DNA of 64,000 nucleotides from Candidatus Hydrogenedentota bacterium (lineage in GTDB: Bacteria; Hydrogenedentota; Hydrogenedentia; Hydrogenedentales; CAITNO01), in contig CAITNO010000046.1 of the NCBI GenBank assembly GCA_903893795.1, forward strand, positions 3,807 through 67,806, read 5' to 3'. A program made the translations under genes and the position numbers. The notes beneath the pieces were generated by a model, which had not been told where the DNA came from, did no database searches, and saw only the letters and a list, made by a program, of their open reading frames with translations. Each line of letters starts with the position of its first letter. The stretch's first letter is position 1. Positions 4,102 to 45,509 of the stretch are shown here, piece after piece.

Positions 4102-4110
4102 GTCTTCCTC

Positions 4111-4398
4111 CTAATTCAGGCTGCTGTCCGGTGTTGCAGTCGGTTGTTTCCTATTTGACAGAACACCGTCAAGAAACCACGATTCCCTGTGTTTACCCCG
4201 GTCTTCCCCGCCAACGAGGAAAATGCGGTTGTCCATGCGCGCCAAGCCATAGTCGATAATCCCCTTGGGCAGGGGGTTGCCGCAGAAATACCGGTTGGTG
4301 GCGGTGTCGTAAACGAGGGATTGGACGGCCCCTTTTCGACCATGTCGCCAGTCGTTTTTGCACGTATTCCTTTGGTGCGCGCTCAGGACGCCAAGCAA
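4111..4398 (-). pseudogene. Short ORF with Kelch/mutarotase-like repeat fragment; possible gene remnant upstream of ald
   Basis: Translation contains a single Kelch-like blade (VYDTATNRYFCGNPLPKGIIDYGLARMDNRIFLVGGED). At 95 aa it is too short for a propeller. Confidence 0.2.
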
Positions 4399-4533
4399 TA
4401 TGTTCTATTCACCGAACTGCCAGGACAATTGAATTAAGGAATGGAAAGGGGCGCGATGACAGTATTCGGTCTTTCGGACGCTGTCCATTGACTCTATTCT
4501 CAGCCATTGGACCACTGGCCCGGTGGGCAAGAC

Positions 4534-4568
4534 AAAACGGCACCTGACCCAAAGGACAAGTGCCGTTC
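4534..4568 (-). terminator. Hairpin downstream of the MaoC-like gene
   Basis: aacggcac…gtgccgtt inverted repeat just 3' of the minus-strand CDS ending at 4595. Confidence 0.35.
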
Positions 4569-4594
4569 GAAAAGACTGTAATTGAAACTTTTCT

Positions 4595-5518
4595 TTAGCC
4601 GAGCAGCGTGTCGTCTGCGCTGGCGGGACGCAGTGAGCCCACGATTACCGGCCGCTCATTCCCGCTGCAGTAGAGGTCAAAACGGTGCGATTCGCCCTCG
4701 GAGCGCGCCTTCATCGTGGCACGACTGCCGAGAAACACGGGGCCTTTGAACGCGGCATCGAGCTGCACGGGACGGGACGGGTCAATGGCGGGCAGATTTG
4801 CGGTGCAGCGCGCCAGCGACCACATGCCGTGCACCAGATGCCTGGGGAATCCAAAAAGTTTTGCCAGCGTCTTGCGCAGGTGAATGGGATTGTAGTCCCC
4901 GCAAACCTTGGCATAACGGCGGCCCATGTTCTCGGGCACCTCCCATGCGGCTTCGCGGTTGGGCTGTTCCAACTCGGGCAGGGCCGCAACCGGGGAGGGG
5001 CCGCCTGTTTCGCCAAAATGTTTGCCCCGTACCAGGTAGGTACTGGTGCACTCCCAGAGGTTGGCCCCATCCTTTTCCGCCCAACTGTTCACCCAGAACT
5101 CCAGTCCGGCCTTGATCACCCGCTGTCCGGCCACGGCGCAGTGCAGGTCAAATGCCTCATTTTCCGCGATGGCCCGGCGCTGCAAAATGCTGTTGCGCGC
5201 ATGCACGGCACCCAGCGGTGATATGGGAAACTGGGAAGAGGCCATGAACATCATGTGAATCCGCGACACCATCACGTAGGGATAAAGGATGGGCAGATTC
5301 TCTCCGGACGGAAGGCCGCAGACTTCGCGGTAGGCGGCGACGAGCGCACGGGTTTCCCCGGCGCCACGCCACACGGCTGAAAGTGCCGGGAGGCTTTGGC
5401 CCGCCTTGAAGCGGGTCTTTCCCTTGGTGAACACCTTTATATATACCGGCAACATGGGCGGTTTAGCGGTGAATTCAAGTTTCTGTGGTGTCTTGACGGT
5501 GTTGCAACAATCGGCCAT
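4595..5518 (-). CDS. MaoC-like (R)-specific enoyl-CoA hydratase/dehydratase, double hotdog fold
   Basis: Hotdog dehydratase signature YAKVCGDYNPIHL; ~300 aa, consistent with N-terminal and C-terminal hotdog halves. Confidence 0.7.
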   Translation of the reverse strand: MADCCNTVKTPQKLEFTAKPPMLPVYIKVFTKGKTRFKAGQSLPALSAVWRGAGETRALVAAYREVCGLPSGENLPILYPYVMVSRIHMMFMASSQFPISPLGAVHARNSILQRRAIAENEAFDLHCAVAGQRVIKAGLEFWVNSWAEKDGANLWECTSTYLVRGKHFGETGGPSPVAALPELEQPNREAAWEVPENMGRRYAKVCGDYNPIHLRKTLAKLFGFPRHLVHGMWSLARCTANLPAIDPSRPVQLDAAFKGPVFLGSRATMKARSEGESHRFDLYCSGNERPVIVGSLRPASADDTLLG

Positions 5519-5906: not shown

Positions 5907-6431
5907 TTGCCAACCAAGGAAAAAATTGAGGCCGTTGCTGAAATGAAGGAACGGCTCGCCAACAACCAGATCGCCATTGCCACGAAGTATGTGGGAATGA
6001 ACGTCTTCCAGGCCACCAACCTGCGCACGAAGCTTCGCGAATGCGGCGTCGAGTTCAAGGTGTACAAAAACACGCTTGCCAGCCGCGCCCTGAACGAGCT
6101 GGGCATGGGAAAGGCCGCCGATTTCATGGAGGGCCCCACGGCGTGGGCGTTCTCGAAGGACCCCGTCGCACCGGCGAAGGTCCTGAAAGATTTCGGCAAA
6201 GAGGTTCCGTTTGTGGTGATGCAGGGCGGTGTGCTCGAGGGCCAGCCGGTGACGGCCGCGCAGCTTGAGGCGCTTGCCAGCCTTCCGCCGCGCGATGTGC
6301 TCATCGCGCAGGTCGTCGGCACCATTGCCATGCCGCTTCGCAATGCCGTCGGCGTGCTCGGCGCGCTGCCGCGCAACCTGGTCAACGCGCTTGACCAGAT
6401 TCGCAAACAGAAAGAGGAGCAGGCCGCGTAA
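5907..6431 (+). CDS. rplJ: 50S ribosomal protein L10
   Basis: TTG start preceded by gaggagg. Sequence PTKEKIEAVAEMKERL…FKVYKNTLA is typical L10. Confidence 0.9.
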   Translation: MPTKEKIEAVAEMKERLANNQIAIATKYVGMNVFQATNLRTKLRECGVEFKVYKNTLASRALNELGMGKAADFMEGPTAWAFSKDPVAPAKVLKDFGKEVPFVVMQGGVLEGQPVTAAQLEALASLPPRDVLIAQVVGTIAMPLRNAVGVLGALPRNLVNALDQIRKQKEEQAA

Positions 6432-6507
6432 GGCCGCGCTCGAACGAACAGTAAACTGAAATTGAAATCACACGCGCCCAAGACGGCGCACGGAGGTTAA
6501 ACAAACC

Positions 6508-6888
6508 ATGTCCGAGAAGCTTGATGCGATTATTGAAAGTGTCGCGAACCTGACCGTCCTCGAGCTCAGCGAGCTTGTGAAAGCCCTTGAAGACAAGTTC
6601 GGCGTCACCGCCGCCGCCCCGATGATGGCTGCCGCCCCGGCCGCCGCCGCCGTTGTGGAAGTGGAAGAGCCGACCGAGTTCAACGTGATCCTGAAGGACT
6701 TCGGCGCCCAGAAGATTGGCGTCATCAAGGTCGTCAAGGACGTCGCCGGCCTGGGCCTGAAGGAAGCCAAGGACCTCGTCGACAAGTCACCGGTCACCGT
6801 GAAGGAAGGCCTGTCCAAGGAAGAGGCCAACAAGTTCAAGGAAGCCCTCGAAGCCGCCGGCGCGACGGTCGAGCTGAAGGGCGTCTAA
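6508..6888 (+). CDS. rplL: 50S ribosomal protein L7/L12
   Basis: [33 protein letters not shown]…, an Ala/Pro hinge, and C-terminal [19 protein letters not shown]…ELKGV are canonical L7/L12. Confidence 0.92.
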
Positions 6889-6908
6889 TTCCCCTTTGCA
6901 TCTCTCTT

Positions 6909-6955
6909 CGCCGCGCGTTCCGGTTCAGGCCGGGACGCGCGGCGCGTTGTTTTGG
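6909..6955 (+). terminator. Intrinsic terminator after rplL
   Basis: 15-bp near-perfect stem cgccgcgcgttccgg/ccgggacgcgcggcg followed by gttgttttgg. Confidence 0.65.
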
Positions 6956-7050
6956 GGAAGGGTTTGCATGATTTTGACAAGGACAACAGGGACGAACACA
7001 GACGGGCACGGACATACACGGGCTCGGGAGACTCGAAGGGCCGTCTTCTC

Positions 7051-8151
7051 CTACGTCATCGCGACCCCTATTCCGCGTGATTCCGTTGTCTTGTGCGCGC
7101 CCACCTGGCGCTCGGGCATGGGTGACACGGCGCAGTAGAAGTGGTAAAGCTTGCCGTCCTTCACGATGACGGAGGGCTTGTGGGCGTAGAGGGAATCAAT
7201 GCTCCCCGTCGGGCCGACATCAATGAGAATCTTGCCCGACTTGCGCCAGTGGCGCAGGTCCTCGGAAAAGGAGACCGAGTCACGGGCGACACCGTCGCTG
7301 CCGAGGGTGTAGAAAAACATGGTCCAGGTGCCGTCCACCCGCACCACGCCGGGGTCGCTGCAGAAGACGTCGTCAAAGGCGCCCTTGGGACCGACGGGTA
7401 CAACCGGGTTTCCCTCAAAGCGTTTCCAGGTTTTCAGGTCGGTGGAAGCGGCCATGCCAGTCTGTTCTTTCCACGGTTCACCCGCCGTCTTGGCGTTGTA
7501 AAACATGTAGAAGGTGCCGCCCTGCTCGACAATGCTGGACTTGTACAGCCCGCCCCGTTCCCAGGAAGCCGCGTCGTTATCAGAGGCGCGTAGGCAGGGC
7601 GGGTCGAGTGACCATTGGCGCAGGTCGTCGCTCCAGCACAGGCCGATGACGGCCGCACCCGTTTCATAGCCCGGTTTGGGATAGGCGTGGTAGGTGCCCA
7701 GATAACGGCCCTGCACCTTTTTCAGCGTGCCCGGTCCGTAGAGGTCATTGTCGCGGACGATCCAAGTGAGCGCCGCATTGTATTCGGTGACCGAACCCGC
7801 CGGGCCCCGGTCGAGAATCACTCCCTCCTTCTTCCAATGGACCAGGTCGTCCGAGGTGGCCAGTCCGGTGCGGTAGCCCGTGCCGTCAAAACCAATGTGG
7901 ACGAGGTGATAGCGGTCCTCATGGAAGAATGCAAAGGGGCAGTCAATGGCCAGTGCGTCATAGGCGCCCGCCTCATAAGAGGGCGCCAGCACCAGATCGG
8001 GATGCTTCTTCGGTGTGCGCACGCGTGCCAGCAGTTTTGCGTCGGGGTTTTCCGCGGCGCGACCCGGCACCGCCATGCCCAGAAAAGAAGCACCCGCCGC
8101 GAGGAACCCACGGCGGGTGCAAATGCTGCAATCACAAGTTAAACGTTCCAT
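7051..8151 (-). CDS. Secreted glycoside hydrolase-like 5-bladed beta-propeller protein (GH43/GH32/GH130-type), Tat signal
   Basis: N-terminal twin-arginine motif TRRGFLAAGASFL. Repeated blade motifs with conserved Trp (DDLVHWKK, DLKTWKR, DLRHWRK) and FYNA motif. Family assignment is tentative. Confidence 0.5.
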   Translation of the reverse strand: MERLTCDCSICTRRGFLAAGASFLGMAVPGRAAENPDAKLLARVRTPKKHPDLVLAPSYEAGAYDALAIDCPFAFFHEDRYHLVHIGFDGTGYRTGLATSDDLVHWKKEGVILDRGPAGSVTEYNAALTWIVRDNDLYGPGTLKKVQGRYLGTYHAYPKPGYETGAAVIGLCWSDDLRQWSLDPPCLRASDNDAASWERGGLYKSSIVEQGGTFYMFYNAKTAGEPWKEQTGMAASTDLKTWKRFEGNPVVPVGPKGAFDDVFCSDPGVVRVDGTWTMFFYTLGSDGVARDSVSFSEDLRHWRKSGKILIDVGPTGSIDSLYAHKPSVIVKDGKLYHFYCAVSPMPERQVGAHKTTESRGIGVAMT

Positions 8152-8225
8152 GAAATGACTCCTGCTCTCACTCCAGTGTAAGGGCCGGGCAGGAAGCGTT
8201 CAAATCAATAGGACAAGACCCCGGC

Positions 8226-8783
8226 TCAGACGCGCTCGACGTAGCTGCCGGTGCGGGTGTCCACCTTCACATTGTCGCCCTCGTTGATAAAGAGCGGCAC
8301 CTGGATGTTGGCGCCCGTTTCGAGGGTGGCGGGCTTGGTGGCGCCGGAGGAGCGGTCACCCTGGATGCCCGGGTCGGACTTGGTGATGACGAAGACGACA
8401 TGCGCCGGTATCTTGACGCTGATCACGTTGTCGCGGTGGAACACGAGCGTGACGTTGTTGTTTTCCTTCATCCACTTCGAGGCATCGCCGATCACCTTGG
8501 GGCTGACGGCCATCTGCTCGAAGGACTCATTGTCCATGAAGTGAAACATGTCACCATCGCTGTAGAGGTACTGCCACGGGCGCTCCTCAATGCGCGCCTC
8601 CTCGAATTTTTCGCCGGAGCGGAAGGTCTGCTCGAGGACGCGGCCGGTGAGGATGTTCTTGAAGCGGGTGCGCACAAAGGCGCCGCCTTTGCCCGGCTTC
8701 ACGTGCTGGAATTCCACGATTTCCATCAGGTTGCCGTCCATTTCCACCACCACGCCGTTTCTGAAGTCTGCCGTTGAAATCAT
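8226..8783 (-). CDS. efp: Elongation factor P
   Basis: MISTADFRNGVVVEMDGNLMEIVEFQHVKPGKGGAFVRTRFKNILTG… is highly conserved EF-P. 185 aa. Confidence 0.92.
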   Translation of the reverse strand: MISTADFRNGVVVEMDGNLMEIVEFQHVKPGKGGAFVRTRFKNILTGRVLEQTFRSGEKFEEARIEERPWQYLYSDGDMFHFMDNESFEQMAVSPKVIGDASKWMKENNNVTLVFHRDNVISVKIPAHVVFVITKSDPGIQGDRSSGATKPATLETGANIQVPLFINEGDNVKVDTRTGSYVERV

Positions 8784-18953: not shown

Positions 18954-19841
18954 TCAGGCGAGCCCGGATGTGGTGTCTTCCGGGGCTTTCTCGGGCGGCG
19001 TGGCCACGGCGAGCGGCAGATGCTCAAAGCTGAACGCATCGGCCGCCGGGGGGGCCGATACGGCTTCCTTCGGCGCTTCCGCGACAAAGAAGGATCGTGA
19101 CGGCCGTTCCACCACCACCGGTTCCGGGACCACCTCCTGCGGTGTTTCCATGGCAACCGGGGCAACGACCTGGGGCGCTTCCACGATCACGGGGGAGGCG
19201 GCCGGTGGGGCTTTCACGACAGCCGCTTCGGGGGCGCTCTTGTCCATGCGCGTCTCCACCTCTTCCCGCAGCCGCTTCGCGGCCGCCTTGGCGTCCACCT
19301 GCGCCCCCTTGATCACCAGTTGCACCGTGGCGCGGTCTTCAAAGCCGACCGCCTTGCCCACCGCCTCGGTGACGCAGGCCGACACAAGCTTCGACGTCTT
19401 GTGCAGTCCCTGCTCGGCGCAGTCTTTCAAGATGACTTCGGCAATAACCTGAACCCGCTGGCGGTCCCGGGAGGGCTTGACGCGCACGCGCGCGCTGCGC
19501 ACCTCGGGCAGGGCCCGGATCACCTTTTCAAGATTGTTCTGGATGGGGGGGAGGGCAAGGATCATCTCCCCGCGGTCGGTGCGGAAGGACACCTTGTCGT
19601 TACGCGCAAGTTTTCGGAAGAAGAGACCATTAATTCCCGCGAGGACCAAAAGGGTGGCCGCAACCTGGCCCACCCGTTGCCAGTCGACAGAGCCCCCTTC
19701 GGCGAAGTAGGGCACGGTCAGCTCGGGGACTTTGTTCAGCAGTGCGGTGATGGTGCCGGAATGGTCAAACACCGCCATGTACAGCAGCATGCCCAGCAGC
19801 AGGATGACAAGGCTCAACAGTTTGTATACGAGCGTTCTCAT
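18954..19841 (-). CDS. Hypothetical membrane-anchored protein with Pro/Ala/Val-rich C-terminal region
   Basis: N-terminal TM helix, central Asp23/Gls24-like region, low-complexity PEAAVVKAPPAASPV tail. No confident family. Confidence 0.4.
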   Translation of the reverse strand: MRTLVYKLLSLVILLLGMLLYMAVFDHSGTITALLNKVPELTVPYFAEGGSVDWQRVGQVAATLLVLAGINGLFFRKLARNDKVSFRTDRGEMILALPPIQNNLEKVIRALPEVRSARVRVKPSRDRQRVQVIAEVILKDCAEQGLHKTSKLVSACVTEAVGKAVGFEDRATVQLVIKGAQVDAKAAAKRLREEVETRMDKSAPEAAVVKAPPAASPVIVEAPQVVAPVAMETPQEVVPEPVVVERPSRSFFVAEAPKEAVSAPPAADAFSFEHLPLAVATPPEKAPEDTTSGLA

Positions 19842-20026
19842 GGTTCTTCCTTTCGCAGTCCTGTTTATGACGGACTATAGGCATAATTCAGTGTAGCAGG
19901 TAATGGTTCCCGGTCCAACGGACATTTCTTGCGACCGTCCCGCGGAAATCGCCCCGAATTCCCCTGGGAAGGGGGAGTGTTATACTGGGCAGCAGGCTTG
20001 TACCGGGAAAAAGGAATGCAGACGCC

Positions 20027-26412: not shown

Positions 26413-28677
26413 TCAGCCGACGATAAAGCGCAGGCCCCGGCAGTTTGTCTCGTTGTAGGCCTTGGCAACGAAATCGGCCACGGAGCGTTCCGAGGCATTT
26501 CCACCGGGCAGGGGCAGCCTGCTGATGGCGCCGCCGTCGAGCCACACATGCACCGCGCCTTCGGCGCGCACCCGTTCAAAGGCATTCCATGAGGCGGCGG
26601 GCAGGGCCGCGCCGGGGGTGTATTCCGCCGCCTGGGTGGCGGGATCGAAGTGGGCCGTCGCCGCGGCGCGGGGATGGCCGGCAAGGTCGAGCGACGCGAA
26701 GCGGCGGGCCGTGTCGGGGTCGCTGTTGGCCGTCAGGGAAAGTGGGATGCGGCGCTGCCGCGCCGTTTCCCGGCAGGCGAAGTGCAGCCGTTCCGCAATG
26801 CGCCGGGCCGTTTCGGCGCGTGCGTTGTCCCCCTGCGCAAGCAGGCCCGCGCACTCCCACAATCCGTCAACGGCAATCTCAAAGACCATGTCATCGGCCG
26901 CCACATAGGGCAGCCCGTTGTGTTCCGCGGCGAGCAGTCGGAGCGGACCATTGTTTCCGCGCAGCAGCAGTTCCTCGATGAACACGCGCTTTTCCACATG
27001 GGCCGCGGCGGCCAGGTTGACCAACCGGTCCAGTTCGGCGAGGAGGCCCGCCTCGTCCTTTGCGTGGCATGCCGCGCGGGGGAGATTGAGCGACACACGC
27101 TGGGCCACCACCCGCCGGGGCCGCCACGCCGGCGCGGCGGCTTCCCTTCCGGGTGTCCGGTCGAGCACGAAATCAAAGCTGCCGCGCACGCAGGCCAGAC
27201 CTGCGGCGTGGCGCAGAAAGTCGCCCGAGCCCGCCGCACTGAAGAAGGACCCGTCTATGGGAATGGTGACGGCCGGCTCGGGGAACACCAGCCCCTCCTC
27301 CTCGCCGTTGCGCAGGGTTTCCACCAGCGCCCAGGCGAAGCGCTGGGCGTCATGGGCAAAGCTGCCCCAGGTGCGCGCCGTCACCTCGCCGCCGGGACCG
27401 ACGGCATCGGCATTGCGCAGCGCGCCGGGCACGGACCAGCAAAGCTCGATTTGCGTTTCCGGCGTGGGGTTGCTGCGGGTGGCCGCCCGGTAGGCGGCCT
27501 CATAGGCCATCATCTGGGCCAGTTGCACCACTTCGTCGTCGGGCCGCTCGTCGACAAAGGGCGCGGCGAAAACGTTGAAGGCCCGCCAGCCCACCCGGGC
27601 CGAGAAGAAGGCGTCGAGCTGCGCGTCAAAGCGGGTCCACTGCGCGAGCAGGGTGTCGGGATAGGCGGGCGGCGCGGCAAAGGCCGTGCCGTCGGGGCGC
27701 TGCACGCCGTAACGGACGAGGTATTCGAGCGAATGGTCGGCGCCGTGGAGCCGGTCCACGCACTCCGCGCCGTGCAGGTGAATCGCGCCCGACAGGTGCG
27801 CGTCGGCCACGGCGGAGGAAAACACCTCGGCCAGCGCGTATTCCTTCTTGAGCGCCCGCGCGAGCGCGCGGTCCGTGGCGTCGGGGTCGGCCCCGGCGCT
27901 TTCAGGCGCGAGGCCGCGCAGGATGCGCGCCGTGTCATAGAGCGGCACGCCCAGGCGGCGGTGCCGGTCGCGCTCGCCGATGAGTCCGTGCTCGATGAGC
28001 CGCGCGCCGACCATTTCGCGCACGAGGGACGAAGTGAGCGTTTGAATGCCCGCGCCCGCGATTTGGCTTTCCACCTCCGCCGCCACCAGCTCGGCCATGT
28101 CGCGGTTCATTCCCGTTTCAAGGGCCAGCGCGTCCACGATTCGGTCGCGGTCCCACGCCGCAATGCGGTCGCCGGTCATGCGCACCCGCAGAAGCGCCCG
28201 GTCCAGCGGTCCAGGAGTGCCCCCGCTGCGCGCCTCCTTCAGTTCGCCCAGCATCGCGTCCAGATCGCCGTCGCGCAGGCGGCGTATGCGCGCGCGCCGG
28301 TCGCGGTGGCGCACATAGGCCAGCGCCGCCGGGATGTGACCCATCGTCAGCAGCACCCGTTCCACCGAGTCATGCACTTGGTCCACCGTGGGCGGACTGG
28401 CGCCGTGGATTTTGGCGAGAAAGATGGTGACGGCCGCAGCAAGCCCGTCGGCCTGGCCGCGATCATCCACGCCCGCCGCGCGGGACGCCTTGAAAATGGC
28501 GTCGGCGATCTTGCGCCGGTCGAACGGCTCGGTGCGGCCGTCCCGCTTGATGACGGCCTGAAAGGGCGCCCCGGCCTCGGCCGCAGGAAGTGGCAGGCTC
28601 ATCTGGGGGTCAAATACCCCCTCGCCCGAGTGTGCCTCGGGCAGCAGGGGCTGCTCGTTGTTTTCCGCGGGAATCAT
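26413..28677 (-). CDS. ATP-cone domain protein with large uncharacterised C-terminal region (~754 aa)
   Basis: N-terminal VIKRDGRTEPFDRRKIADAIFKASRAAGV matches the ATP-cone consensus of NrdR/NrdD/NrdA. The remaining ~650 aa show no glycyl-radical motif or other recognisable RNR motifs. ATG at 28677 preceded by gaagaggg. Confidence 0.55.
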   Translation of the reverse strand: MIPAENNEQPLLPEAHSGEGVFDPQMSLPLPAAEAGAPFQAVIKRDGRTEPFDRRKIADAIFKASRAAGVDDRGQADGLAAAVTIFLAKIHGASPPTVDQVHDSVERVLLTMGHIPAALAYVRHRDRRARIRRLRDGDLDAMLGELKEARSGGTPGPLDRALLRVRMTGDRIAAWDRDRIVDALALETGMNRDMAELVAAEVESQIAGAGIQTLTSSLVREMVGARLIEHGLIGERDRHRRLGVPLYDTARILRGLAPESAGADPDATDRALARALKKEYALAEVFSSAVADAHLSGAIHLHGAECVDRLHGADHSLEYLVRYGVQRPDGTAFAAPPAYPDTLLAQWTRFDAQLDAFFSARVGWRAFNVFAAPFVDERPDDEVVQLAQMMAYEAAYRAATRSNPTPETQIELCWSVPGALRNADAVGPGGEVTARTWGSFAHDAQRFAWALVETLRNGEEEGLVFPEPAVTIPIDGSFFSAAGSGDFLRHAAGLACVRGSFDFVLDRTPGREAAAPAWRPRRVVAQRVSLNLPRAACHAKDEAGLLAELDRLVNLAAAAHVEKRVFIEELLLRGNNGPLRLLAAEHNGLPYVAADDMVFEIAVDGLWECAGLLAQGDNARAETARRIAERLHFACRETARQRRIPLSLTANSDPDTARRFASLDLAGHPRAAATAHFDPATQAAEYTPGAALPAASWNAFERVRAEGAVHVWLDGGAISRLPLPGGNASERSVADFVAKAYNETNCRGLRFIVG

Positions 28678-28834: not shown

Positions 28835-30610
28835 CTATTCGCAGTAGGGTGGGCAGGAACCGTAGTGGCGGCGCAGGGCGTCGATGTAGGCTTCGGCGAA
28901 GGCCTGGCGCCATTTCGGGTCGGCGAGATTGGCCCGGTCTTCGGCGTTGTTCGTGTTGCCCGTCTCAATCAACACTTTCGTGGGCACGCAGGCGTTGCGC
29001 AGCACGCAGGGAAGGTAGGCCTTGCCGCCCCGCTGGCGAATGACGTTGCGGATGGGGTCGCCCGACTGATGCACCCTAATCACCGGCTTGTGCGCGCCCA
29101 GCGCGCCCACCAGCGTCTGCGCGAAGACCCGCGACATGGCCTCGTCGCGCAGGGCCTGCGCGTCGGTGCAGGAGGCGGCCCGCGCGCCGCGCGCCTCGGC
29201 GTACTGGTTGTAGTCGTGGCCGTTGGGCGTTTCCGTTTCGCGGCGGTGCGCCGCGCCGGGCACGTAGATCATGGCGCCCTTCATTTCGCGGTGCAGCGCG
29301 TCGCAGTGGATGGAGGTGAACAGCACGTTGCGCTCGGTCACGCCCGCGGCGCGCTCGTGCCGGTAGATGTCGTTGGCCAGGTACCACCGCAGGTTGGCCG
29401 ACACTTTGGCGTCGTCGTTGTAATAGGGCGGGGTGGTCTGCACCACCTTGTTGCCGTCCTCCCCAAACTTGTGCGCGTTGCTGACGGCAAAGCCGTGGTC
29501 CACGTCCCTCATGGTCATGAACACCTTGGCCCGTGTCTTCGTCTCCAGCAGACTCTTGATGCGGCAGGCGATGTCGTAGTTCACCGCGTACTCATACACG
29601 CCGTCCACCGGCGGCGCTCCCGAGTCCCGGCCGCCGTGGCCGGGGTCGAGGATGACCACCACCCCCTCCAGGTCCTTGGTGCGGTTCTTGTCGCCCGACA
29701 GGCGCTGCGCCTCGGCCTGCACCTCGTCGTATTCCTTGCGCTCCTCCGTGCCCTGCGGCTGGTAGCGGTCGGCCAGCATTTCCAGCGGGATGCGGATGCG
29801 CTGGCCCGCGCCGACCTTCCGGTCATCCTTGATGCCGCTGCGCTGCATGATCACCTCGCAGGCGCCCTGCACTTCGGTGTGGCCGCTGTAGTCCGTGAAG
29901 CGGCCCACCACGCCCGAGTAGATCGTCTCGCCCTTGCGCATGTGGTATTCGGCGTACTTGCCTTCCTTGTCCGAACCGTAGCTCAGGCCCGACACCTCGG
30001 GACTGACGCTTTCATGGCCGGTGCCTGCCTTGGCATCGCCCTTGGGCTCCGTGGGCTCCGACGGGGCGGGGCGCGGGGTCAGTGCCTGCATCGCAGGCAG
30101 GAGCAGGCGCATGGGCACCAGCAGGCGCAGTCCCTTTTCGAGCGGCTCGGCAGGCGGACCCTGGGCGCCTTCGACGCGTATTTGGTTGCTGTACCCGGGG
30201 GTTCCCGTCAGCCATTCGGCCAGCAGCAGGGTGGATTCGCTGCCGTCTGTGCCGTAAAAACTGACCGTGTGCCACCAACCGGAGGCGTCCACGTAGTCCT
30301 GGGGAAACACCGCCTCCAGCGCGGCGCGCTGCGCCTTGGGGTTAAGCTTGCTGAAAGGGACGGCCACGGCCTGGCGGTCCTTGTAGAGTTTGCAGTCCTC
30401 TGCCGAGGCCAGGTATTTGGATAGGAGCTGTTGCGCGGCTTTGCCCAGGGGCAGCTGTGCCTCAAGAAAGAGGATGCGGCCCCCGCGCAGCACGGCGGAA
30501 ACACCGGGTTCCAAATCGCGCCGTATGCCGCCCTGGGCCCCCGCCGCCTGTGCCAGCCCGAGGACCGCCAGTGCCAGAACCCAGATATGCCTTCTCAACC
30601 AACCCGCCAA
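28835..30610 (-). CDS. N-acetylmuramoyl-L-alanine amidase (Amidase_3 family) with large N-terminal extension
   Basis: Signal peptide. C-terminal Amidase_3 motifs VVILDPGHGGRDSGA, SIHCDA and KVLIETGNTNN. N-terminal ~300 aa uncharacterised. Confidence 0.75.
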   Translation of the reverse strand: MAGWLRRHIWVLALAVLGLAQAAGAQGGIRRDLEPGVSAVLRGGRILFLEAQLPLGKAAQQLLSKYLASAEDCKLYKDRQAVAVPFSKLNPKAQRAALEAVFPQDYVDASGWWHTVSFYGTDGSESTLLLAEWLTGTPGYSNQIRVEGAQGPPAEPLEKGLRLLVPMRLLLPAMQALTPRPAPSEPTEPKGDAKAGTGHESVSPEVSGLSYGSDKEGKYAEYHMRKGETIYSGVVGRFTDYSGHTEVQGACEVIMQRSGIKDDRKVGAGQRIRIPLEMLADRYQPQGTEERKEYDEVQAEAQRLSGDKNRTKDLEGVVVILDPGHGGRDSGAPPVDGVYEYAVNYDIACRIKSLLETKTRAKVFMTMRDVDHGFAVSNAHKFGEDGNKVVQTTPPYYNDDAKVSANLRWYLANDIYRHERAAGVTERNVLFTSIHCDALHREMKGAMIYVPGAAHRRETETPNGHDYNQYAEARGARAASCTDAQALRDEAMSRVFAQTLVGALGAHKPVIRVHQSGDPIRNVIRQRGGKAYLPCVLRNACVPTKVLIETGNTNNAEDRANLADPKWRQAFAEAYIDALRRHYGSCPPYCE

Positions 30611-30715: not shown

Positions 30716-31001
30716 CTAAATCTGCGATCGCACTGACGGGCTCTATCTGTTGTGTTTTCTGATGCGCTCCGCGTACCGCAGGCGTCCCGCCTGCTCTGGT
30801 CCTGGGGCAGAGGGACGCCTGCGGTGCCTATCCGGCTCGCGGCGCCGATATTTCATGCCAAGCCTGCTCCATGAAGACCCGTGACATATTTTGACAACGC
30901 CGGTCCGCAGTTCTATCATTGAACGCGCTCTTCGCATTGCGCCTGGGGCAAACAGTCCGGGGACCGGCCGGTTTACCGGCACCATTTTGGAGGGAACTTT
31001 G

Positions 31002-32999
31002 ATGGGAATCGTGGCTGTCAGTGCATCGTGGCTCTTTGTCATTTTCGTGTTACTGGTGGCGGCCGTGCTGGTGCTGCCGTCCATCCGGCGCATCGGTCCG
31101 ACGGAGGTGGGGCTGGTCATGAAGCGCTTTTCCTGGAACAAGCTGCCCAGCGACAACCCCATCGGATTCCACGGCGAGGCGGGCTACCAGGCCCAGCTCC
31201 TCATGCCGGGACTGCGCTTCAAGTTCTGGGTGGTCTACCGCGTTGAAAAGCACCCCTGGGTGCAGGTTCCGGCCGGCGAGATCGGCGTGGTTATCGCGCA
31301 GGTGGGCAGCGGGCTGCCCATCGGCGCCAAGTCGGCCGTGTACAAGCCCATTTTCGGCAACTTCTCCGACCTGGCCGTGTTCATGGGGAACGGCGGACAG
31401 AAGGGCGTGCAGCGGCCCGTGCTGCCGCCGGGCACGCTCATGCCGATCCATCCCGTGGCCTTCCTGGTGATCACCAAGAACCGCGTCTACGGTGTGCCCA
31501 TTTCACCGGAGCTGCAGTCGATAAAGGAGTCCAAGGGCGGGCTCATGCCGCAGACCTTTGGTCTCGAGCTGTGGCAGTTGGACATCCTGCGCATCGCGCC
31601 GCGCGCCCGGGGCGACCATGGCGAGATCGAGGATGTTGTCGGCATCGTGACCACCCTCGAGGGCGACCCGCTGCCCTCCGGCGCCATTGCCAGCCGCCTC
31701 GGCGGCTTTGCCGACATCGGGCAGTTGGAAAGGGGCGGCGCGAGCGATGCAGACCTGATCGAGTGCATCCTGGGCAGCAAGAACAACGTGCACAACAACT
31801 ACCAGGATTTCCAGGCCTTCCTCGACGGCGGCGGCACCATCGGACTGCAGCACGACCCGCTGCTCTACGGCGCCTACACGCTCAACCCCTTCCTGGTCCG
31901 CGTGGAAGCCATGCCCATGCTGGTTGTCCGCCAGGGCGAGGTGGCCGTGATGAAGGCCTACGTCGGCCTTTCCATGGAGGACACCTCGGGCAAGGAGTTC
32001 AAGTTCGGCTCGCTCGTGCGGCCGGGCCACCGGGGCATCTGGCAGGAGCCGTTGCGCACCGGCAAATATCCGCTCAACCCGCGCTGCTACCAGGCGGAGG
32101 TCGTGCTGACCAGCATCCTCACGCTCAACTGGGCCAACGCCGTGTCGCAGGCCCACAGCCTCGACCGCCAGCTCAGCCAGATCACGGCGAAGAGCTGCGA
32201 GGGCTTCGAGTTCAAGATCGACCTGCAGGTCCAGATCCATGTCGCCGACACCAAGGCGCCTTGGGTGATTTCCATGGTCGGCACGCAGCAGAACCTGGTG
32301 AACGAGGTTTTGCAGGCCGTCATCGGAAACCATTTCCGCGACAAGCTCCAGAGCATGCCGGCCATCACCTTCATTGAGACGCGCCAGCATGTGCAGGAGG
32401 AGGCGCTGGCGCACATCAGGTCCTTTGTGGAGCAGTACCAGGTGGAGACCAAGGGCGTGTACATCCAGGACGTGATCCTGCCCACCGAACTGGTCGCCGT
32501 GCTGACCGAGCGCGAAATTGCCAACCAGGAGGTGGAGACCTTCAAGAAGCAGAAAGCCGCGCAGGACGTGCGCCTCGACATGGAGCAGGCCAAGGGCCAG
32601 GCCGACATGCAGGCCGAACTGGCCAAGTCGGCCGTCGGCGTCAACATCAAGGAAAATAACGCCCGCGCCCGCACGGCCGAGGCCGAGGGCGACGCGGCCT
32701 ACATCGAAAAGACCGGCTTCGCGCAGGGCGCCAGCGTCAAGGCCATCGGCCTTGCCCGCGCCGAAGGCTACCGCGCCCAGGTCGAGGCTTTGGGCCAGAC
32801 CTCCACAACGCTCGTCAACGTCATCACCTCGCTCTCCGAGGGCAAGGTGCAGTTCGTGCCCAACATTTTGGTTGCGGGCGGCGGTGGTTCCGGCGCGCTT
32901 GAAGGCTTGGCCGCGACGCTCATGCAGCATATCAGCAAGCTGGATGAGAAGAAGGATGTGGCGGCGGTGGTGGAGACACCCGAATCGAAGCAACGGTGA
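31002..32999 (+). CDS. Flotillin-like SPFH/band-7 protein (YqiK/FloA-like)
   Basis: ATG at 31002 with ggaggg RBS. N-terminal TM helix, SPFH core, long coiled-coil with EA repeats (…EQAKGQADMQAELAKSAVG…). Confidence 0.75.
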   Translation: MGIVAVSASWLFVIFVLLVAAVLVLPSIRRIGPTEVGLVMKRFSWNKLPSDNPIGFHGEAGYQAQLLMPGLRFKFWVVYRVEKHPWVQVPAGEIGVVIAQVGSGLPIGAKSAVYKPIFGNFSDLAVFMGNGGQKGVQRPVLPPGTLMPIHPVAFLVITKNRVYGVPISPELQSIKESKGGLMPQTFGLELWQLDILRIAPRARGDHGEIEDVVGIVTTLEGDPLPSGAIASRLGGFADIGQLERGGASDADLIECILGSKNNVHNNYQDFQAFLDGGGTIGLQHDPLLYGAYTLNPFLVRVEAMPMLVVRQGEVAVMKAYVGLSMEDTSGKEFKFGSLVRPGHRGIWQEPLRTGKYPLNPRCYQAEVVLTSILTLNWANAVSQAHSLDRQLSQITAKSCEGFEFKIDLQVQIHVADTKAPWVISMVGTQQNLVNEVLQAVIGNHFRDKLQSMPAITFIETRQHVQEEALAHIRSFVEQYQVETKGVYIQDVILPTELVAVLTEREIANQEVETFKKQKAAQDVRLDMEQAKGQADMQAELAKSAVGVNIKENNARARTAEAEGDAAYIEKTGFAQGASVKAIGLARAEGYRAQVEALGQTSTTLVNVITSLSEGKVQFVPNILVAGGGGSGALEGLAATLMQHISKLDEKKDVAAVVETPESKQR

Positions 33000-41925: not shown

Positions 41926-43467
41926 CTAGAAGTAGAGCACCGTTGACACGTACAAAGCGTGCTGGTCCACATCGGCAGAGGTGCGGTACATGCCAAAACT
42001 GTCCTGCCGGACATGGTTGCCCCAACGGTACACATAGGCCAGGTCCAGGTTGACCCGGTCCTTGATGAGGACGCCCGCGCCGAGCGACACACCGAAGTAG
42101 TCGTCGGGCCTGCCGTCGCCGCGGCTCAGGCCGAAGGGGGTGCTCGGACGGTGGCTGGCCGGTTCGGGATCATAGAACAGGCCCGCCCGCAGGCTGGGCA
42201 GATAGTCCTGCTTCGGCTTGGCCGCGTTCACGAACACGTACTCGGCGCCCATGCGCACCGTCCAGGTGGCGTCGATGGGATTGTCGCCGTTTGGCAGACC
42301 AGTGACGCCCGAAATGACCTGGCGGCGCATGCTCCGGTTGTGCGGGTCGCGGATGACGAAGTCGTTCCAGTCGCGGCGCGTCACGTCCAGCGAGAGGGTC
42401 AGCTTGTCGTCTGCAAAGCGGTAGGCCGCACCCGCGCCGATGGCGTCGGGAAAGGTGATTTCCTGCGGACGGCGGGCGGTGGTCATGCCGAAGCCGGCGG
42501 CGCTGACGGTGGTGCGCACGGTCTGTGTGTACTCGGCGTCGGCGCACAGGCGGGTGTGATACACCATGCCGAGGCTGAGCCGGTCGTTGGGTTTGTAGAG
42601 CGTGCCAAGGGTGAAGTTCACCCCCTGAAAATCGCGGTACTTCTCCTCCATCTGAAAATGCACCCACGAGGAGGGAAGCGTCGCGCCGTTGATCATGAAG
42701 CGCCGCCGCTCGTCGGTGGTGATGGTCCATTCATTGTCCGGCAGCAGCGCGTGCTGGTAGAAATTGGCCACCACGCCCAGGGACCACTGGTCGGTGATTT
42801 CAAAACCGAAGGCGGGCGAAAGCGCGGCCAGTTGGCCGCGCTGTTTGTAGTCGATGTTGCTGAAGAGACTGGCGATGTTTCCGCCTGCAAGGGCGGTGCC
42901 GCTGCCGTAGTTCAGGCGCAGGTTTCGGTCGAAATCATACTTGCGCTGGTAGTTGAGGCTGAGCACAAAATTGCGCCCGGCCAGGGTCCACGGCACGGGC
43001 CATACGGCGCTCATGTAATTGATACCGTTGAGCGAGACGCTCTGCCCGCCGTCCAGTTCGGGATGGGCCAGGGACCGGAAATCCTCGCTGTGCCAGGCAA
43101 AGTCGTAGACGAGGGAGAATTCGGGGCGTTCAAGCTGGGTCAGTCCGCCGGGGTTCCACGATGCGGCGGTGGCGTCGTCCGCCACGGCGACGAAGGCGCC
43201 GCCCATGCCTATGGCACGCGCGCCGCTGCCCACGACGTTGGGCGACGACGTGATGTTGACCGACTGCCCCCACGCGGCCGACGCCGCGACGAGGAGCAGC
43301 GCGGCCAGGCTACATGGTAACGGCCGGCATGCCCTTTTCAATGGCAACGCCCTCCTGCTTTGTCTCCACGGTCTTGGCGCGGGTGCCCGTGTCGCCCGCG
43401 CTTTCGACGCGCGCGCGGCCCACCGGCACAAATTCGGCCGGGGCGAGCACCTCGCCCGTTTTCTCAC
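41926..43467 (-). CDS. Outer membrane transport protein, OMPP1/FadL/TodX family
   Basis: Signal peptide LAALLLVAASAAWGQS. GMGGAFVAVADDATAASWNPGGL N-terminal hatch motif. C-terminal Phe. The true start is unclear because no ATG precedes the signal peptide; the ORF-track start at 43467 gives an implausible Arg-rich extension overlapping the upstream gene. Confidence 0.6.
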   Translation of the reverse strand: MRKRARCSPRPNLCRWAARASKARATRAPAPRPWRQSRRALPLKRACRPLPCSLAALLLVAASAAWGQSVNITSSPNVVGSGARAIGMGGAFVAVADDATAASWNPGGLTQLERPEFSLVYDFAWHSEDFRSLAHPELDGGQSVSLNGINYMSAVWPVPWTLAGRNFVLSLNYQRKYDFDRNLRLNYGSGTALAGGNIASLFSNIDYKQRGQLAALSPAFGFEITDQWSLGVVANFYQHALLPDNEWTITTDERRRFMINGATLPSSWVHFQMEEKYRDFQGVNFTLGTLYKPNDRLSLGMVYHTRLCADAEYTQTVRTTVSAAGFGMTTARRPQEITFPDAIGAGAAYRFADDKLTLSLDVTRRDWNDFVIRDPHNRSMRRQVISGVTGLPNGDNPIDATWTVRMGAEYVFVNAAKPKQDYLPSLRAGLFYDPEPASHRPSTPFGLSRGDGRPDDYFGVSLGAGVLIKDRVNLDLAYVYRWGNHVRQDSFGMYRTSADVDQHALYVSTVLYF

Positions 43468-45418
43468 CCAGCCACGGCGGCGACTCGGTCACCACGAGCA
43501 GATAGGCGCCGGGGCGCACCCCGTCCTCGCGGGTCCAGTTGAGCAGCAGTTCGGAGGCCCCAGCCGCGCCGCGCACCGCCGTCACCTCGCCCGATAGCCG
43601 GGGATAGGCCTGCGTGAGCTGCGCCGCAAGCGATGCGCAGCACTGGTCCACCGCCGCGGCGTCGCCGCGGTCCGGCGCGAAGGCGTCGATGACGGTCACG
43701 ATTTCGGAGCTTTCCGTGCTGATGACGCGGACCTTGACCTCCACGCCCTTGTCATCGCGGGGAAAAACCTCGCCCACGAGAAAGATCTGCGCGTTGGTCA
43801 GCCGGCCGAGCGCGATGGCCTGGTCGGGGTCGGCCAGCGCGGCGGCAAGTTGCTGCTCGGTGAGCACGGCCTGAAGATTGGCGCGGTCCAGCAGGCGGAA
43901 ACGTCCGCCCGCGGCCAGCCGCGACTCCGTTTCGGCGCGCAGCCGCGCCACCAGGGCATCGTCCAGTCCCGCGCCCGAAAAGGCCAGCACGGCCACGGGC
44001 ATGCGCGACTCGGGCGCGTCGAGCCGCACCGGGCGCACCTCCACGTCGACCGCCTTGTCGATCGCATGGCCGGCACCGTCCTCGGCATGCACGGCCACGG
44101 CCACACGGCCCACGCCGTCCTTCAGCGTGGACTCGTCGATGGGGATGCGGCGGTTGAAGCTTTCCCTGGGCGCGCCGGTCAAGGGGTCAAAGGGCTCGCC
44201 GTTGATTTGCAGCGACTTCACCGGGCTGGCCGAGACCACCTCGCCGGAAACGGTAAGCGTGCGGCTGTGCCGGTAGGGCTTGTCGGTCTGGGGCGATTTG
44301 AGCCGGATTTCACCGCCTGCGGCGGGGGCGGGCGGCGCGTCCTGTGCGAGCATCTGAAGGGCCGACGCGCCATCGTCGGCGGAGGCAAACACCAGCGCCT
44401 GCCCGTCGCGGTGCTGGCGGTTGAGCCACAGCTTTGCCTCGCGCGAGGCCGGGTCGCCCTGGAACACCTTGATGGCGGTGCGCGTCTCGTTGCCGGCCGT
44501 GTCGCGCGCGGCCACGACGAAAAGGTTCTCGCCCTTGGCCAGCGGCAGTTTCGTGTTGAACTCCAGGCGCGGCACGCCGGGCGACTCGGCCAGGATGCGC
44601 TTGTCGCAGTCCACCCGCGTGACACCGTTCTTGTCGGCCGAGGCCCCTTCGAGCATGATCATGTTGTCCGGCGTGACCGTCGGCTCGATGGGGGTGAAGA
44701 TGCCGAGCGTGGGGCCCGTGAGATCCACCGTGACCTCCACCTTGGTGGTGGTTTCCTTGCCTGCGAGGTTCTTTGCCGTCAGGGTGACGGTGTTCTTTCC
44801 CTCGGTCAGTGCCACCTTCTCCTTCGCCTTCACTTCGGGCCTGCTTCCCCGCTGGGGAAGCACCCGGTTGTTGACGCGCACTTCCGCCACGCCCACCGCG
44901 TCCCTCGCGCTCAGTTCAAGCGGCAGGTCGCGTTCGGCGATAATGTGTTCGGCCGGGGCAACGATGCCCGGTGCGGCATCGTCTTTCAGCGTGCCCTGCG
45001 CAATGCGCGCCTTCTTCACCTCGTCGAGATAGAAATGGGCGCGGTCCGTGTCCACCGCCGCGAGCGAGGCGTTCAGCAGTTGTTCCGCCTCGTCGAGTTT
45101 GCCCCCATGAAAACAGCACACCCCCAGTTCGCGGCTGGGAAAGTACTCCACAAAATGCAGGCCGTAGGTGCGCGCGCGCCAGGTGTCGGTGGAACGGCCG
45201 TGCAGCGCCTGCCGAAAATCGGCCTCGGCCTGGGCGTACAGGTTGCCGGAAAGGTAGGAAGATCCGCGTTCGTAGTAGTTCCACCAGCGGCCGTGGAAAA
45301 TACCCTTCGTCACCCCGAATTGGGCACCGTCGCGCGGGCGGAGCGACGCCTCATCAGAGACGCAACCCGCCAAAGCGAGGACGCCGAGAAGAAATCCTGC
45401 CGTTGCCCGTCTGCCCAT
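43310..45418 (-). CDS. Lipoprotein with Ig-like/TPR-like regions and CsgG/LpoB-like C-terminal domain
   Basis: Lipobox LALAGC. LDRANLQAVLTEQQL motif as in CsgG/LpoB-type proteins. ATG at 45418. Confidence 0.5.
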   Translation of the reverse strand: MGRRATAGFLLGVLALAGCVSDEASLRPRDGAQFGVTKGIFHGRWWNYYERGSSYLSGNLYAQAEADFRQALHGRSTDTWRARTYGLHFVEYFPSRELGVCCFHGGKLDEAEQLLNASLAAVDTDRAHFYLDEVKKARIAQGTLKDDAAPGIVAPAEHIIAERDLPLELSARDAVGVAEVRVNNRVLPQRGSRPEVKAKEKVALTEGKNTVTLTAKNLAGKETTTKVEVTVDLTGPTLGIFTPIEPTVTPDNMIMLEGASADKNGVTRVDCDKRILAESPGVPRLEFNTKLPLAKGENLFVVAARDTAGNETRTAIKVFQGDPASREAKLWLNRQHRDGQALVFASADDGASALQMLAQDAPPAPAAGGEIRLKSPQTDKPYRHSRTLTVSGEVVSASPVKSLQINGEPFDPLTGAPRESFNRRIPIDESTLKDGVGRVAVAVHAEDGAGHAIDKAVDVEVRPVRLDAPESRMPVAVLAFSGAGLDDALVARLRAETESRLAAGGRFRLLDRANLQAVLTEQQLAAALADPDQAIALGRLTNAQIFLVGEVFPRDDKGVEVKVRVISTESSEIVTVIDAFAPDRGDAAAVDQCCASLAAQLTQAYPRLSGEVTAVRGAAGASELLLNWTREDGVRPGAYLLVVTESPPWLGEKTGEVLAPAEFVPVGRARVESAGDTGTRAKTVETKQEGVAIEKGMPAVTM

Positions 45419-45509
45419 GCCGCACCGTCCCTTGTTCAGGCCTTCCCTAAATATATCATCTGGCTGGATTTTTGTAAACCAAAGACCCCGGGGCAACCTC
45501 TCCGACGTC

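Follow-up and report, generated by a model that had tools for sequence, protein, structure and literature searches.

The window analysed here, a 64,000-nucleotide (nt) stretch of contig CAITNO010000046.1 from a Candidatus Hydrogenedentota bacterium, encodes on its minus strand (26413-28677) a 754-amino-acid (aa) protein that joins an N-terminal ATP-cone to the core of NrdD, the class III or anaerobic ribonucleotide reductase (RNR), and that is very probably a non-catalytic NrdD derivative. This protein and its relatives, referred to below as the short form, constitute a non-catalytic, phylum-restricted clade of class III RNRs that is undescribed in the literature searched: full-text searches returned nothing relevant on NrdD or RNR in Hydrogenedentota, on NrdD-like proteins, on anaerobic-RNR pseudoenzymes or on an RNR carrying a clamp-binding motif with DnaN, and the available parts of the large RNR phylogenies make no mention of class III members without the finger loop or the glycyl-radical domain. 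Taken as a whole, the data are best explained by an RNR-derived pseudoenzyme that senses ATP or dATP, the reading that we favour on balance. The features on which the argument depends are the following, in window coordinates.

26413..28677, minus strand: coding sequence of the short-form (catalytically dead) NrdD homologue, 754 aa, defined by its open reading frame (ORF) and by the conserved start and length in the orthologues L003-L006
28720..28727, minus strand: -10-like element GCTACACT, 50 nt upstream of the ATG, part of TTG[TC]-N~18-GCTA[CG]ACT
28585..28623, minus strand: N-terminal short linear motif, residues 19-31, EGVFDPQMSLPLP, whose core QMSLPL resembles a beta-clamp-binding hexapeptide
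28273..28557, minus strand: ATP-cone 1 (PF03477), residues 41-135, including the Arg-rich last helix YVRHRDRRARIRRLR
27958..28191, minus strand: second, degenerate ATP-cone-like domain, residues ~163-240, with the KR nucleotide ligands replaced
27892..27909, minus strand: position of the NxN substrate flap, residues 257-262, APESAG in the window protein and NKENAN in canonical NrdD
26440..27873, minus strand: NrdD-type alpha/beta-barrel core, residues 269-746, from Pfam NRDD, Foldseek and a PDB profile search
27742..27744, minus strand: Gly312 where canonical NrdD has the beta-A active-site cysteine, RLHGADHS in the window protein and RPYCSGQS in canonical NrdD
27112..27165, minus strand: short linker in place of the finger loop, residues 505-522, with ~17 residues deleted, including the ECCR radical-cysteine motif
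26611..26622, minus strand: Y686-T-P-G689 in place of the canonical YYTNS strand motif, from the alignment

Class III core and lost catalytic elements

The reading frame opens with an ATG at 28677 and ends at 26413; an alternative TTG start at 28968 would give a longer ORF, but one that runs into the neighbouring amidase gene. Since the orthologues L003-L006, at 82-84% identity, share the same starting Met and have exactly 754 codons each, 26413-28677 is taken as the gene, and the ORF given in the original prediction, which was made from the sequence alone, is real. A protein identical to that of the window (P0001) also occurs in public data from metagenome-assembled genomes (MAGs).

The C-terminal part had been described as holding no recognisable RNR catalytic domain, a statement that does not survive closer comparison, as the last 480 residues align to the class III NrdD core by both sequence and fold. 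The Pfam family NRDD (PF13597) matches residues 269-746 with E=2.2e-38, covering profile positions 13-499 of 562. In the AlphaFold2 model (mean predicted local distance difference test score, pLDDT, 82; predicted template modelling score 0.68; barrel mostly above 90), the top 36 PDB matches returned by Foldseek are all class III RNRs (8p2c, 9d3x, 4coj, 1h79 and 1h78 among them), with E values from 1e-19 to 5e-12, 556-822 aligned columns and template modelling scores of 0.54-0.73 when normalised to the target. A PDB sequence search with the single protein reached ATP-cones only; the NrdD cores were retrieved once a profile of the family served as query. The scores against the NCBIfam NrdD equivalogs TIGR02487 and PRK08270 are far under their cutoffs (101 bits versus 326 and 126 bits versus 548, respectively). 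Several members bear the public name 'anaerobic ribonucleoside-triphosphate reductase', given by both JGI and NCBI. The nearest canonical relatives, at 35-38% identity, are NrdDs of the WOR-3/Latescibacteria type, full-length proteins with the Zn-ribbon and ...ITR[IV]TGYF...; they belong to the ECCR double-cysteine type that carries an ATP-cone at its N-terminus, found in WOR-3, Latescibacteria and Edwardsbacteria (the P0100 group). With canonical NrdD, for which solved examples are those of P. copri (8P23), T. maritima (4COI), T4 (1H79) and S. thermophilus (9D3X), the short form shares the fold, the domain order (ATP-cone, degenerate cone, 10-stranded barrel core) and the motifs RLGVPLYD, AH..G.H.H and NLPR together with R659 and D664.

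The catalytic hallmarks were scored in an alignment of 102 short-form proteins and 12 canonical relatives, to which the counts below refer, with definitions drawn from Bimai et al. 2024 (PMC11226230) and Burnim et al. 2022 (PMC9669993); motifs were mapped with MAFFT and HMMER alignments at 13-38% identity. The canonical finger loop, ...GETAKISECCRLSFKLEESD..., which bears the thiyl-radical cysteine in a motif of the MGCR, MCCR or SCCR type, MGCR and MCCR being described across 1,375 class III sequences (PMC9669993), is a gap in 101 of the 102 short-form sequences. The beta-A position is a cysteine in 92.6% of class III sequences (PMC9669993) and in all 12 canonical relatives, in the alignment column into which the P. 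copri beta-A cysteine also falls, whereas the short form has Ser (43 sequences), Ala (15), Gly (12), Arg (12) or Gln (11). Both Asn residues of the NxN flap, which contacts the substrate (PMC11226230), are present in 12 of 12 canonical relatives, whereas Asn is rare at either position in the short form, where the first is most often T, E, A, G or S and the second most often G, P, A, C or S. The strand motif YYTNS has given way to Y[TS]xG, with Y686 and G689 each in 102/102, against Ser at 689 in all 12 canonical relatives. Finally, the domain made up of the four-Cys Zn-ribbon and the radical glycine (R-x-x-G-Y) is absent from every one of the 102 sequences: the window protein ends ...ETNCRGLRFIVG, about 55 residues before the canonical CxxC...CxxC...ITR[IV]TGYF, and its relatives do likewise, in agreement with the earlier statement that neither a Zn-ribbon nor a glycyl-radical motif is present.

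No cysteine is invariant in the family. Some other elements are retained in part, such as the triphosphate-binding HxHD motif, in which H300 is found in 96, H302 in 78 and D303 in 37 of the 102 sequences (HLHG in the window protein), and the A-T-P-A-E phosphate loop, from which T-P-A has gone and in which an Asp or Glu stands at or beside the equivalent of P. copri Glu581 in ~65/102, the MAFFT and HMMER alignments placing this position one residue apart. Because the radical-cysteine loop, the beta-A cysteine, the NxN flap and the glycyl-radical domain are lost, we infer from the sequences that ribonucleotide reduction would be impossible for the short form, which on these grounds cannot be a ribonucleotide reductase.

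Other long-branch NrdD-like lineages (P0180, P0191, P0216, P0225, P0203, P0207, P0215 and others) were also found. They still have the Zn-ribbon, but another residue stands in place of the radical Gly (RVTDAY, RVTTYY, RVTDYY), and both the finger-loop and the beta-A cysteines are gone; lying outside the main short-form clade, they may represent separate or transitional steps in the inactivation of NrdD.

Conservation, ATP-cones and the N-terminal motif

Among 5.8 billion proteins searched, the identical one was recovered together with ~100 relatives 730-800 aa long, the named ones from Candidatus Hydrogenedentes or Hydrogenedentota MAGs, and the weakest matches were full-length NrdDs. With HMMER, 1.84 billion cluster representatives gave 312 matches below 1e-30; 176 of 224 near-full-length sequences lack all five scored catalytic markers, and 166 short-form representatives, the window protein included, fall in one clade of a crude, midpoint-rooted neighbour-joining tree, all five markers being absent from 164 of them. 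A scan of one genome per GTDB species yielded 123 confirmed matches, of which the best 80 include ~70 full-length short-form genes and are nearly all titled Hydrogenedentota, Hydrogenedentes or Hydrogenedentales; a few species matches titled 'uncultured Nitrospirales' or 'Bathyarchaeia' are probably mislabelled bins. Across the phylum Hydrogenedentota the short-form gene is conserved, with intact copies in at least 70 species genomes and a conserved length of ~750 aa. Among the 120 proteins most closely related to the nearest canonical NrdD, none is labelled Hydrogenedentota, names being too sparse among them to prove the absence; those named are WOR-3 or Latescibacteria, and a related split form belongs to Ca. 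Edwardsbacteria.

Among five close orthologues, the pairwise ratio of nonsynonymous to synonymous substitution rates (dN/dS) is 0.11-0.24 overall, 0.16-0.25 in the barrel, 0.14-0.18 in ATP-cone 1 and 0.05-0.12 in the second cone, the lowest of all regions; the gene is under purifying selection and is maintained, not decaying. The protein evolves faster than its neighbour all the same, with a median identity of 40% between short-form proteins against 80% for the adjacent NrdR in the same genome pairs, and much faster than the canonical NrdDs of the sister clade, which share 65-90% identity against ~40% within the phylum.

The N-terminal ATP-cone, which the original prediction had recognised from a peptide corresponding to residues 42-70, is confirmed by PF03477 over residues 41-129, with 76.4 bits against a cutoff of 25.8 and E=2.7e-21 (60.6 bits if scanned alone). 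The ligand residues K7, R8, Y83, R87 and R91 of P. copri NrdD align with K44, R45, H124, R128 and R132; K44, R45, R128 and R132 are each conserved in at least 90% of members, and position 124 is Tyr in most of them and His in the window protein. The conservation of these equivalents identifies a cone of the two-nucleotide type, and both the cone and its Arg-rich last helix, RyRDRRaRiRrLR, rank among the best-conserved parts of the protein. On this evidence the cone probably binds, and would sense, ATP and dATP. The second cone is recognised by PF03477 below threshold (23.0 bits versus 25.8, E=1.2e-4) and is modelled by AlphaFold2 as a beta-hairpin with four helices; together with the following RLGVPLYD segment, it is well conserved and common to canonical relatives.

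The short form has, in addition, gained a family-specific N-terminal motif, EGxFDxQ[LM]x[LF]P, that counts among its best-conserved stretches and is absent from the canonical relatives that bear an ATP-cone. Its consensus core is QLSLPL, and QMSLPL in the window protein, whose motif peptide EGVFDPQMSLPLPA carries Q25, L28 and L30. Conservation among the 102 sequences is very high for E19 (99), G20 (102), F/Y22 (99), D23 (101), Q25 (102), L/M26 (102) and L/F/I/M28 (102), and lower for P29 (85) and P31 (86), the flanks on both sides being variable. The segment is read as disordered because of its AlphaFold2 pLDDT of ~30 (residues 1-34), and 16-19 residues, with a median of 19, separate the motif from the KRDG 'roof' hairpin of the cone. 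In neighbouring ORFs the strict motif has a background of 0.03 per 1000 aa and lies within the first 60 residues of 2/604; in six-frame translations of ~1.1 Mb of related loci it occurs in members of this family only, so that these loci give no independent view of the clamp-motif consensus of the phylum.

The core of this motif resembles the peptides through which proteins bind the beta sliding clamp. In E. coli Hda, L7, L9, P10 and L11 of the hexapeptide 6-QLSLPL-11 occupy the cleft of the clamp (PMC5397184), and the peptide binds with a dissociation constant of 0.38 uM (PMC11139829); clamp-binding motifs (CBMs) follow the pattern Q-phi-x-[L/M]-[F/L] or Q-phi-x-[L/M]-x-[F/L] and lie in flexible or unstructured stretches, usually between acidic flanks (PMC11139829). 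The family consensus QLSLPL is identical to the CBM of Hda, and the motif likewise lies in a disordered segment with acidic flanks, E19 (99/102) and D23 (101/102). The window version, Q25-M-S-L-P-L30, fits the definition provided that Met counts as phi, the residue found at that position in the clamp motif of MutS, QMSLL. It is possible, and is proposed here only tentatively, that the protein binds the sliding clamp through this motif; dnaN is not in the 64-kb window.

Genomic context

In six short-form loci a 149-aa NrdR (Zn_ribbon_NrdR plus ATP-cone) is encoded 124-242 nt upstream of the short-form gene and co-oriented with it, and in a seventh at 1.8 kb; the loci with nrdR upstream are L010 (9857-10306), L013 (9428-9877), L041, L058, L070, L071 and the canonical L034. 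Several of the nrdR-bearing short-form loci also have an rsmD-like methyltransferase gene upstream of nrdR. This rsmD-nrdR-nrdD order, shared by some short-form genomes with canonical NrdD, is that of canonical L034, while rsmD lies upstream of the canonical nrdD in L044 and nrdR directly upstream of a split nrdD in L083, which indicates that the dead gene sits at the ancestral nrdD position. In the genomes where nrdR is adjacent, the short-form gene stays linked to the regulation of deoxyribonucleoside triphosphates (dNTPs). In contrast to every canonical locus retrieved (L034, L044, L080 and L083), where nrdG lies downstream of nrdD, none of ~64 short-form loci gave an nrdG by tblastn in flanks of up to 10 kb.

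Two further sources of the missing catalytic parts were considered and set aside: a glycyl-radical piece supplied in trans, for which tblastn with the stand-alone Edwardsbacteria glycyl-radical ORF and NrdG was empty in the short-form loci, and a nearby second RNR or radical-SAM activase, neither of which Pfam found in 24 of the larger ORFs of the window. An NrdR operator upstream of the short-form gene found no support: palindromes resembling the NrdR-box consensus acaCwAtATaTwGtgt scored no better than in shuffled sequence over 66 upstream regions, although the box of this phylum may differ from that consensus. A riboswitch or other RNA element was dropped as a candidate after no Rfam family reached its gathering score in window positions 20-36 kb, and a role in anti-phage defence was dismissed in the same way, PADLOC giving no match for the protein or its neighbours.

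In 25 of 66 loci the promoter-like element TTG[TC]-N~18-GCTA[CG]ACT, to which the -10-like sequence of the window belongs, precedes the gene at a distance of 40-160 nt, ~60-fold above a background of 0.02 per kb. This suggests that the short-form gene has a promoter of its own and does not depend simply on read-through from the amidase gene. A second copy in the window (19890-19897, minus strand) lies 56 nt upstream of a 295-aa ORF without a Pfam match (18954-19841, minus strand), and in close orthologues a small conserved hairpin, GGTCCC-N4-GGGACC, is present in the 5' leader after the element.

The gene directly upstream in the window, co-oriented as the original prediction had said, encodes an Amidase_3 protein (28835-30610, minus strand; Pfam E=7.7e-21) after an intergenic gap of 157 nt. 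This adjacency is not conserved, and a functional tie to the amidase was rejected: tblastn with the amidase was empty in 69 family loci, including the orthologues of 82-84% identity. Shared window neighbours were found by tblastn with L003 only (the downstream rmlD-like, 124-aa and 357-aa genes), and when the neighbouring ORFs were clustered, the most widespread cluster reached no more than 9 of 64 loci. The first ~300 residues of the amidase are without a Pfam match, and its divergent neighbour (30891-32999, plus strand) is a 702-aa SPFH/Band_7 protein, far longer than typical members. A TPR/Big_13/Glucodextran_B/CsgG-like protein of ~700 aa is encoded in the window at 43310-45496 (minus strand), 15 kb from the short-form gene, and again in L001 at 6122-8212 (minus strand), 2 kb upstream of it, a recurrence that is probably coincidental synteny within the phylum. 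At 60534-63527 (plus strand), a 997-aa protein combines an F5/8 type C (discoidin) domain, PF18582 (the middle domain of hydrazine synthase alpha, E=2e-19) and weak cytochrome c motifs; outside anammox organisms such an architecture is unusual.

Among the relatives, the L083 locus of Ca. Edwardsbacteria encodes an otherwise canonical NrdD (3001-5430, P0099) in which the finger-loop CC, beta-A Cys, NxN flap and Zn-ribbon are all present and which ends ...CPHCSGRKISGIERIK, just short of the glycyl-radical motif. A separate 95-aa ORF with ...NHITRVTGYFTIVEGWNKGK... follows 1.1 kb downstream (6577-6864), and then nrdG (7535-8233); a hydrophobic ORF of 141 aa, but no Rfam intron, lies in the gap between NrdD and the 95-aa ORF. 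The P0099 cluster has 21 members, mostly of 809-810 aa. Either NrdD may be split by nature here, its glycyl-radical subunit being a protein by itself, or an unrecognised intervening element may be present. The canonical NrdDs of L034 (9890-12724) and L044 (1309-4164), 944-951 aa long, have an extension of ~130 aa after the glycyl-radical motif, with a CxxC (CARC); it looks like a fused reductant domain of the thioredoxin or glutaredoxin type, which would fit the ECCR (thioredoxin-type) finger loop of that canonical clade.

Possible function and implications

In P. copri NrdD, P. aeruginosa NrdA and NrdR, ATP-cones bring about oligomerisation by contacting one another or the core, those contacts involving the cone roof in real NrdDs, and in P. 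copri NrdD the binding of ATP or dATP shifts the position of the cone and the dimer-tetramer equilibrium (PMC11226230). In the short form, nucleotide in the cone would similarly change cone position and the oligomeric state of a dimeric scaffold, as in NrdDs and NrdR, and the output would be a protein-protein interaction instead of catalysis. With one N-terminal motif per monomer, a dimer could engage two clefts of the beta sliding clamp, the adjacent cone roof, according to its ATP/dATP state, would control how accessible the motif is, and the status of the dNTP pool would in this way be coupled to the replisome. This more specific proposal, an anaerobic RNR turned into a replisome-tethered dATP/ATP sensor, bound to the clamp by an Hda-like QLSLPL motif just ahead of the cone, in which the state of the dNTP pool would gate clamp access or give a signal to replication, is speculative and slightly more doubtful than clamp binding itself.

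Several observations weigh against it. The strict hexamer Q-phi-x-[LM]-x-[FL] is found in only 66 of 157 family members, and a large subgroup has the non-canonical QLSFP[AT]PF, in which F4 with F8 replace L4 with L6 in a co-varying manner. The invariant EG.FD before the Gln is foreign to known CBMs, so that the partner could be other than the clamp, and AlphaFold, in a single-protein model, docked the N-terminal tail nowhere. The HxH motif, largely kept, and the acidic residue of the phosphate loop may reflect a vestigial or new nucleotide site in the barrel; the binding of ATP or dATP by the cone is deduced from sequence; and the single short-form clade comes from a tree that, as noted, is a crude one.

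Other partners and roles have also to be considered. The pseudoenzyme might sense nucleotides and, in place of the clamp, have the RNR regulatory machinery as partner, forming hetero-oligomers through its cone either with NrdR, as co-repressor or anti-repressor, or with the real RNR of the organism, whose overall activity it would regulate in trans. The conservation of the cone and the part played by cones in the oligomerisation of NrdD, NrdA and NrdR (PMC11226230) speak for such a partner, as does the co-oriented nrdR directly upstream in 6-7 short-form loci; this adjacency, however, is absent from ~90% of them, the window included, and is explained by ancestry, since the canonical loci L034 and L083 show it too. 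Neither a Hydrogenedentota-labelled NrdD among the 120 relatives of the nearest canonical clade nor an excess of NrdR-box-like palindromes over shuffles was found, and the new N-terminal motif would be left unexplained, which makes this an unlikely alternative that still deserves some weight. Less probable again is a neofunctionalised enzyme, in which a barrel remodelled by loss of the finger loop would provide a new pocket for a cone-regulated role other than NTP reduction. The barrel is modelled with high confidence, evolves under purifying selection (dN/dS as given above) and contains the invariant or near-invariant polar residues H294, H300, D308, R309, N368, N531, R534, E608, R659, D664 and Y686, besides the family-specific G689; nevertheless, most of these polar residues are common to canonical NrdD and may therefore be structural or vestigial, no conserved cysteine, new cofactor motif or conserved operon partner accompanies them, and the barrel changes at about twice the rate of the neighbouring nrdR (the median 40% versus 80% identity).

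The two remaining possibilities are already contradicted by the data and can be given hardly any credence. A working class III RNR, with its missing parts supplied in trans or lost by errors of assembly or annotation, would agree with the JGI and NCBI names and has a parallel in the apparently split NrdD of Ca. Edwardsbacteria with its separate glycyl-radical ORF, but the finger-loop, beta-A Cys and NxN losses are internal and recur in 101-102 of 102 independent assemblies, neither nrdG nor a glycyl-radical ORF is found within 10 kb in ~64 loci, and the NCBIfam scores fall far short of the equivalog cutoffs. A functionless, decaying nrdD pseudogene would account for the loss of catalytic elements and for evolution faster than that of nrdR, although not for intact frames of conserved length in at least 70 species, the low overall dN/dS, the gain of a new invariant N-terminal motif or the conserved promoter-like element upstream. 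The nucleotide-sensing pseudoenzyme consequently stands as the preferred reading, and the original suggestion of a nucleotide-sensing regulator or an enzyme of undescribed function survives as regards the regulator, while the C-terminal part turns out to be an NrdD core.

From canonical NrdD the short form differs in the want of the finger loop, beta-A Cys, NxN flap, Zn-ribbon/glycyl-radical domain and adjacent nrdG. Hda/HdaA, which acts in the regulatory inactivation of DnaA, is a regulator that binds nucleotide and reaches the clamp by a hexapeptide in its flexible N-terminal tail (PMC5397184), and the short form would resemble it in this, its own hexapeptide being a putative counterpart, but Hda has an AAA+ fold instead of an ATP-cone and RNR barrel, and EG.FD is absent from it. 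NrdR, which is encoded beside the short-form gene in some genomes, also uses an ATP-cone as an ATP/dATP sensor with a non-catalytic output; it is, however, a protein of ~150 aa with a DNA-binding Zn-ribbon, whereas the short form carries a 480-aa dead RNR barrel, and Pfam found no Zn-ribbon DNA-binding domain (PF22811) in it. The M45/UL45 proteins of beta-herpesviruses are inactive homologues of the RNR large subunit that have kept the fold and been repurposed for protein-protein interaction; these are viral and derived from class I, with no functional allosteric cone implicated, whereas the short form is a bacterial, chromosomal and phylum-wide derivative of class III in which the ATP-cone ranks with the best-conserved parts. 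To our knowledge, there is no precedent for a bacterial RNR-derived pseudoenzyme, nor for a direct physical tie between nucleotide-pool sensing and the bacterial replisome.

In summary, metabolic reconstructions of Hydrogenedentota that credit the short form with anaerobic dNTP synthesis are probably wrong. The family offers a case in which a radical enzyme has been stripped of its catalytic parts while its allosteric sensor domain is among the best-conserved regions. Should the N-terminal motif indeed bind the clamp, the short form would represent a new class of clamp client and a directly testable mechanism coupling dNTP pools to bacterial replication.

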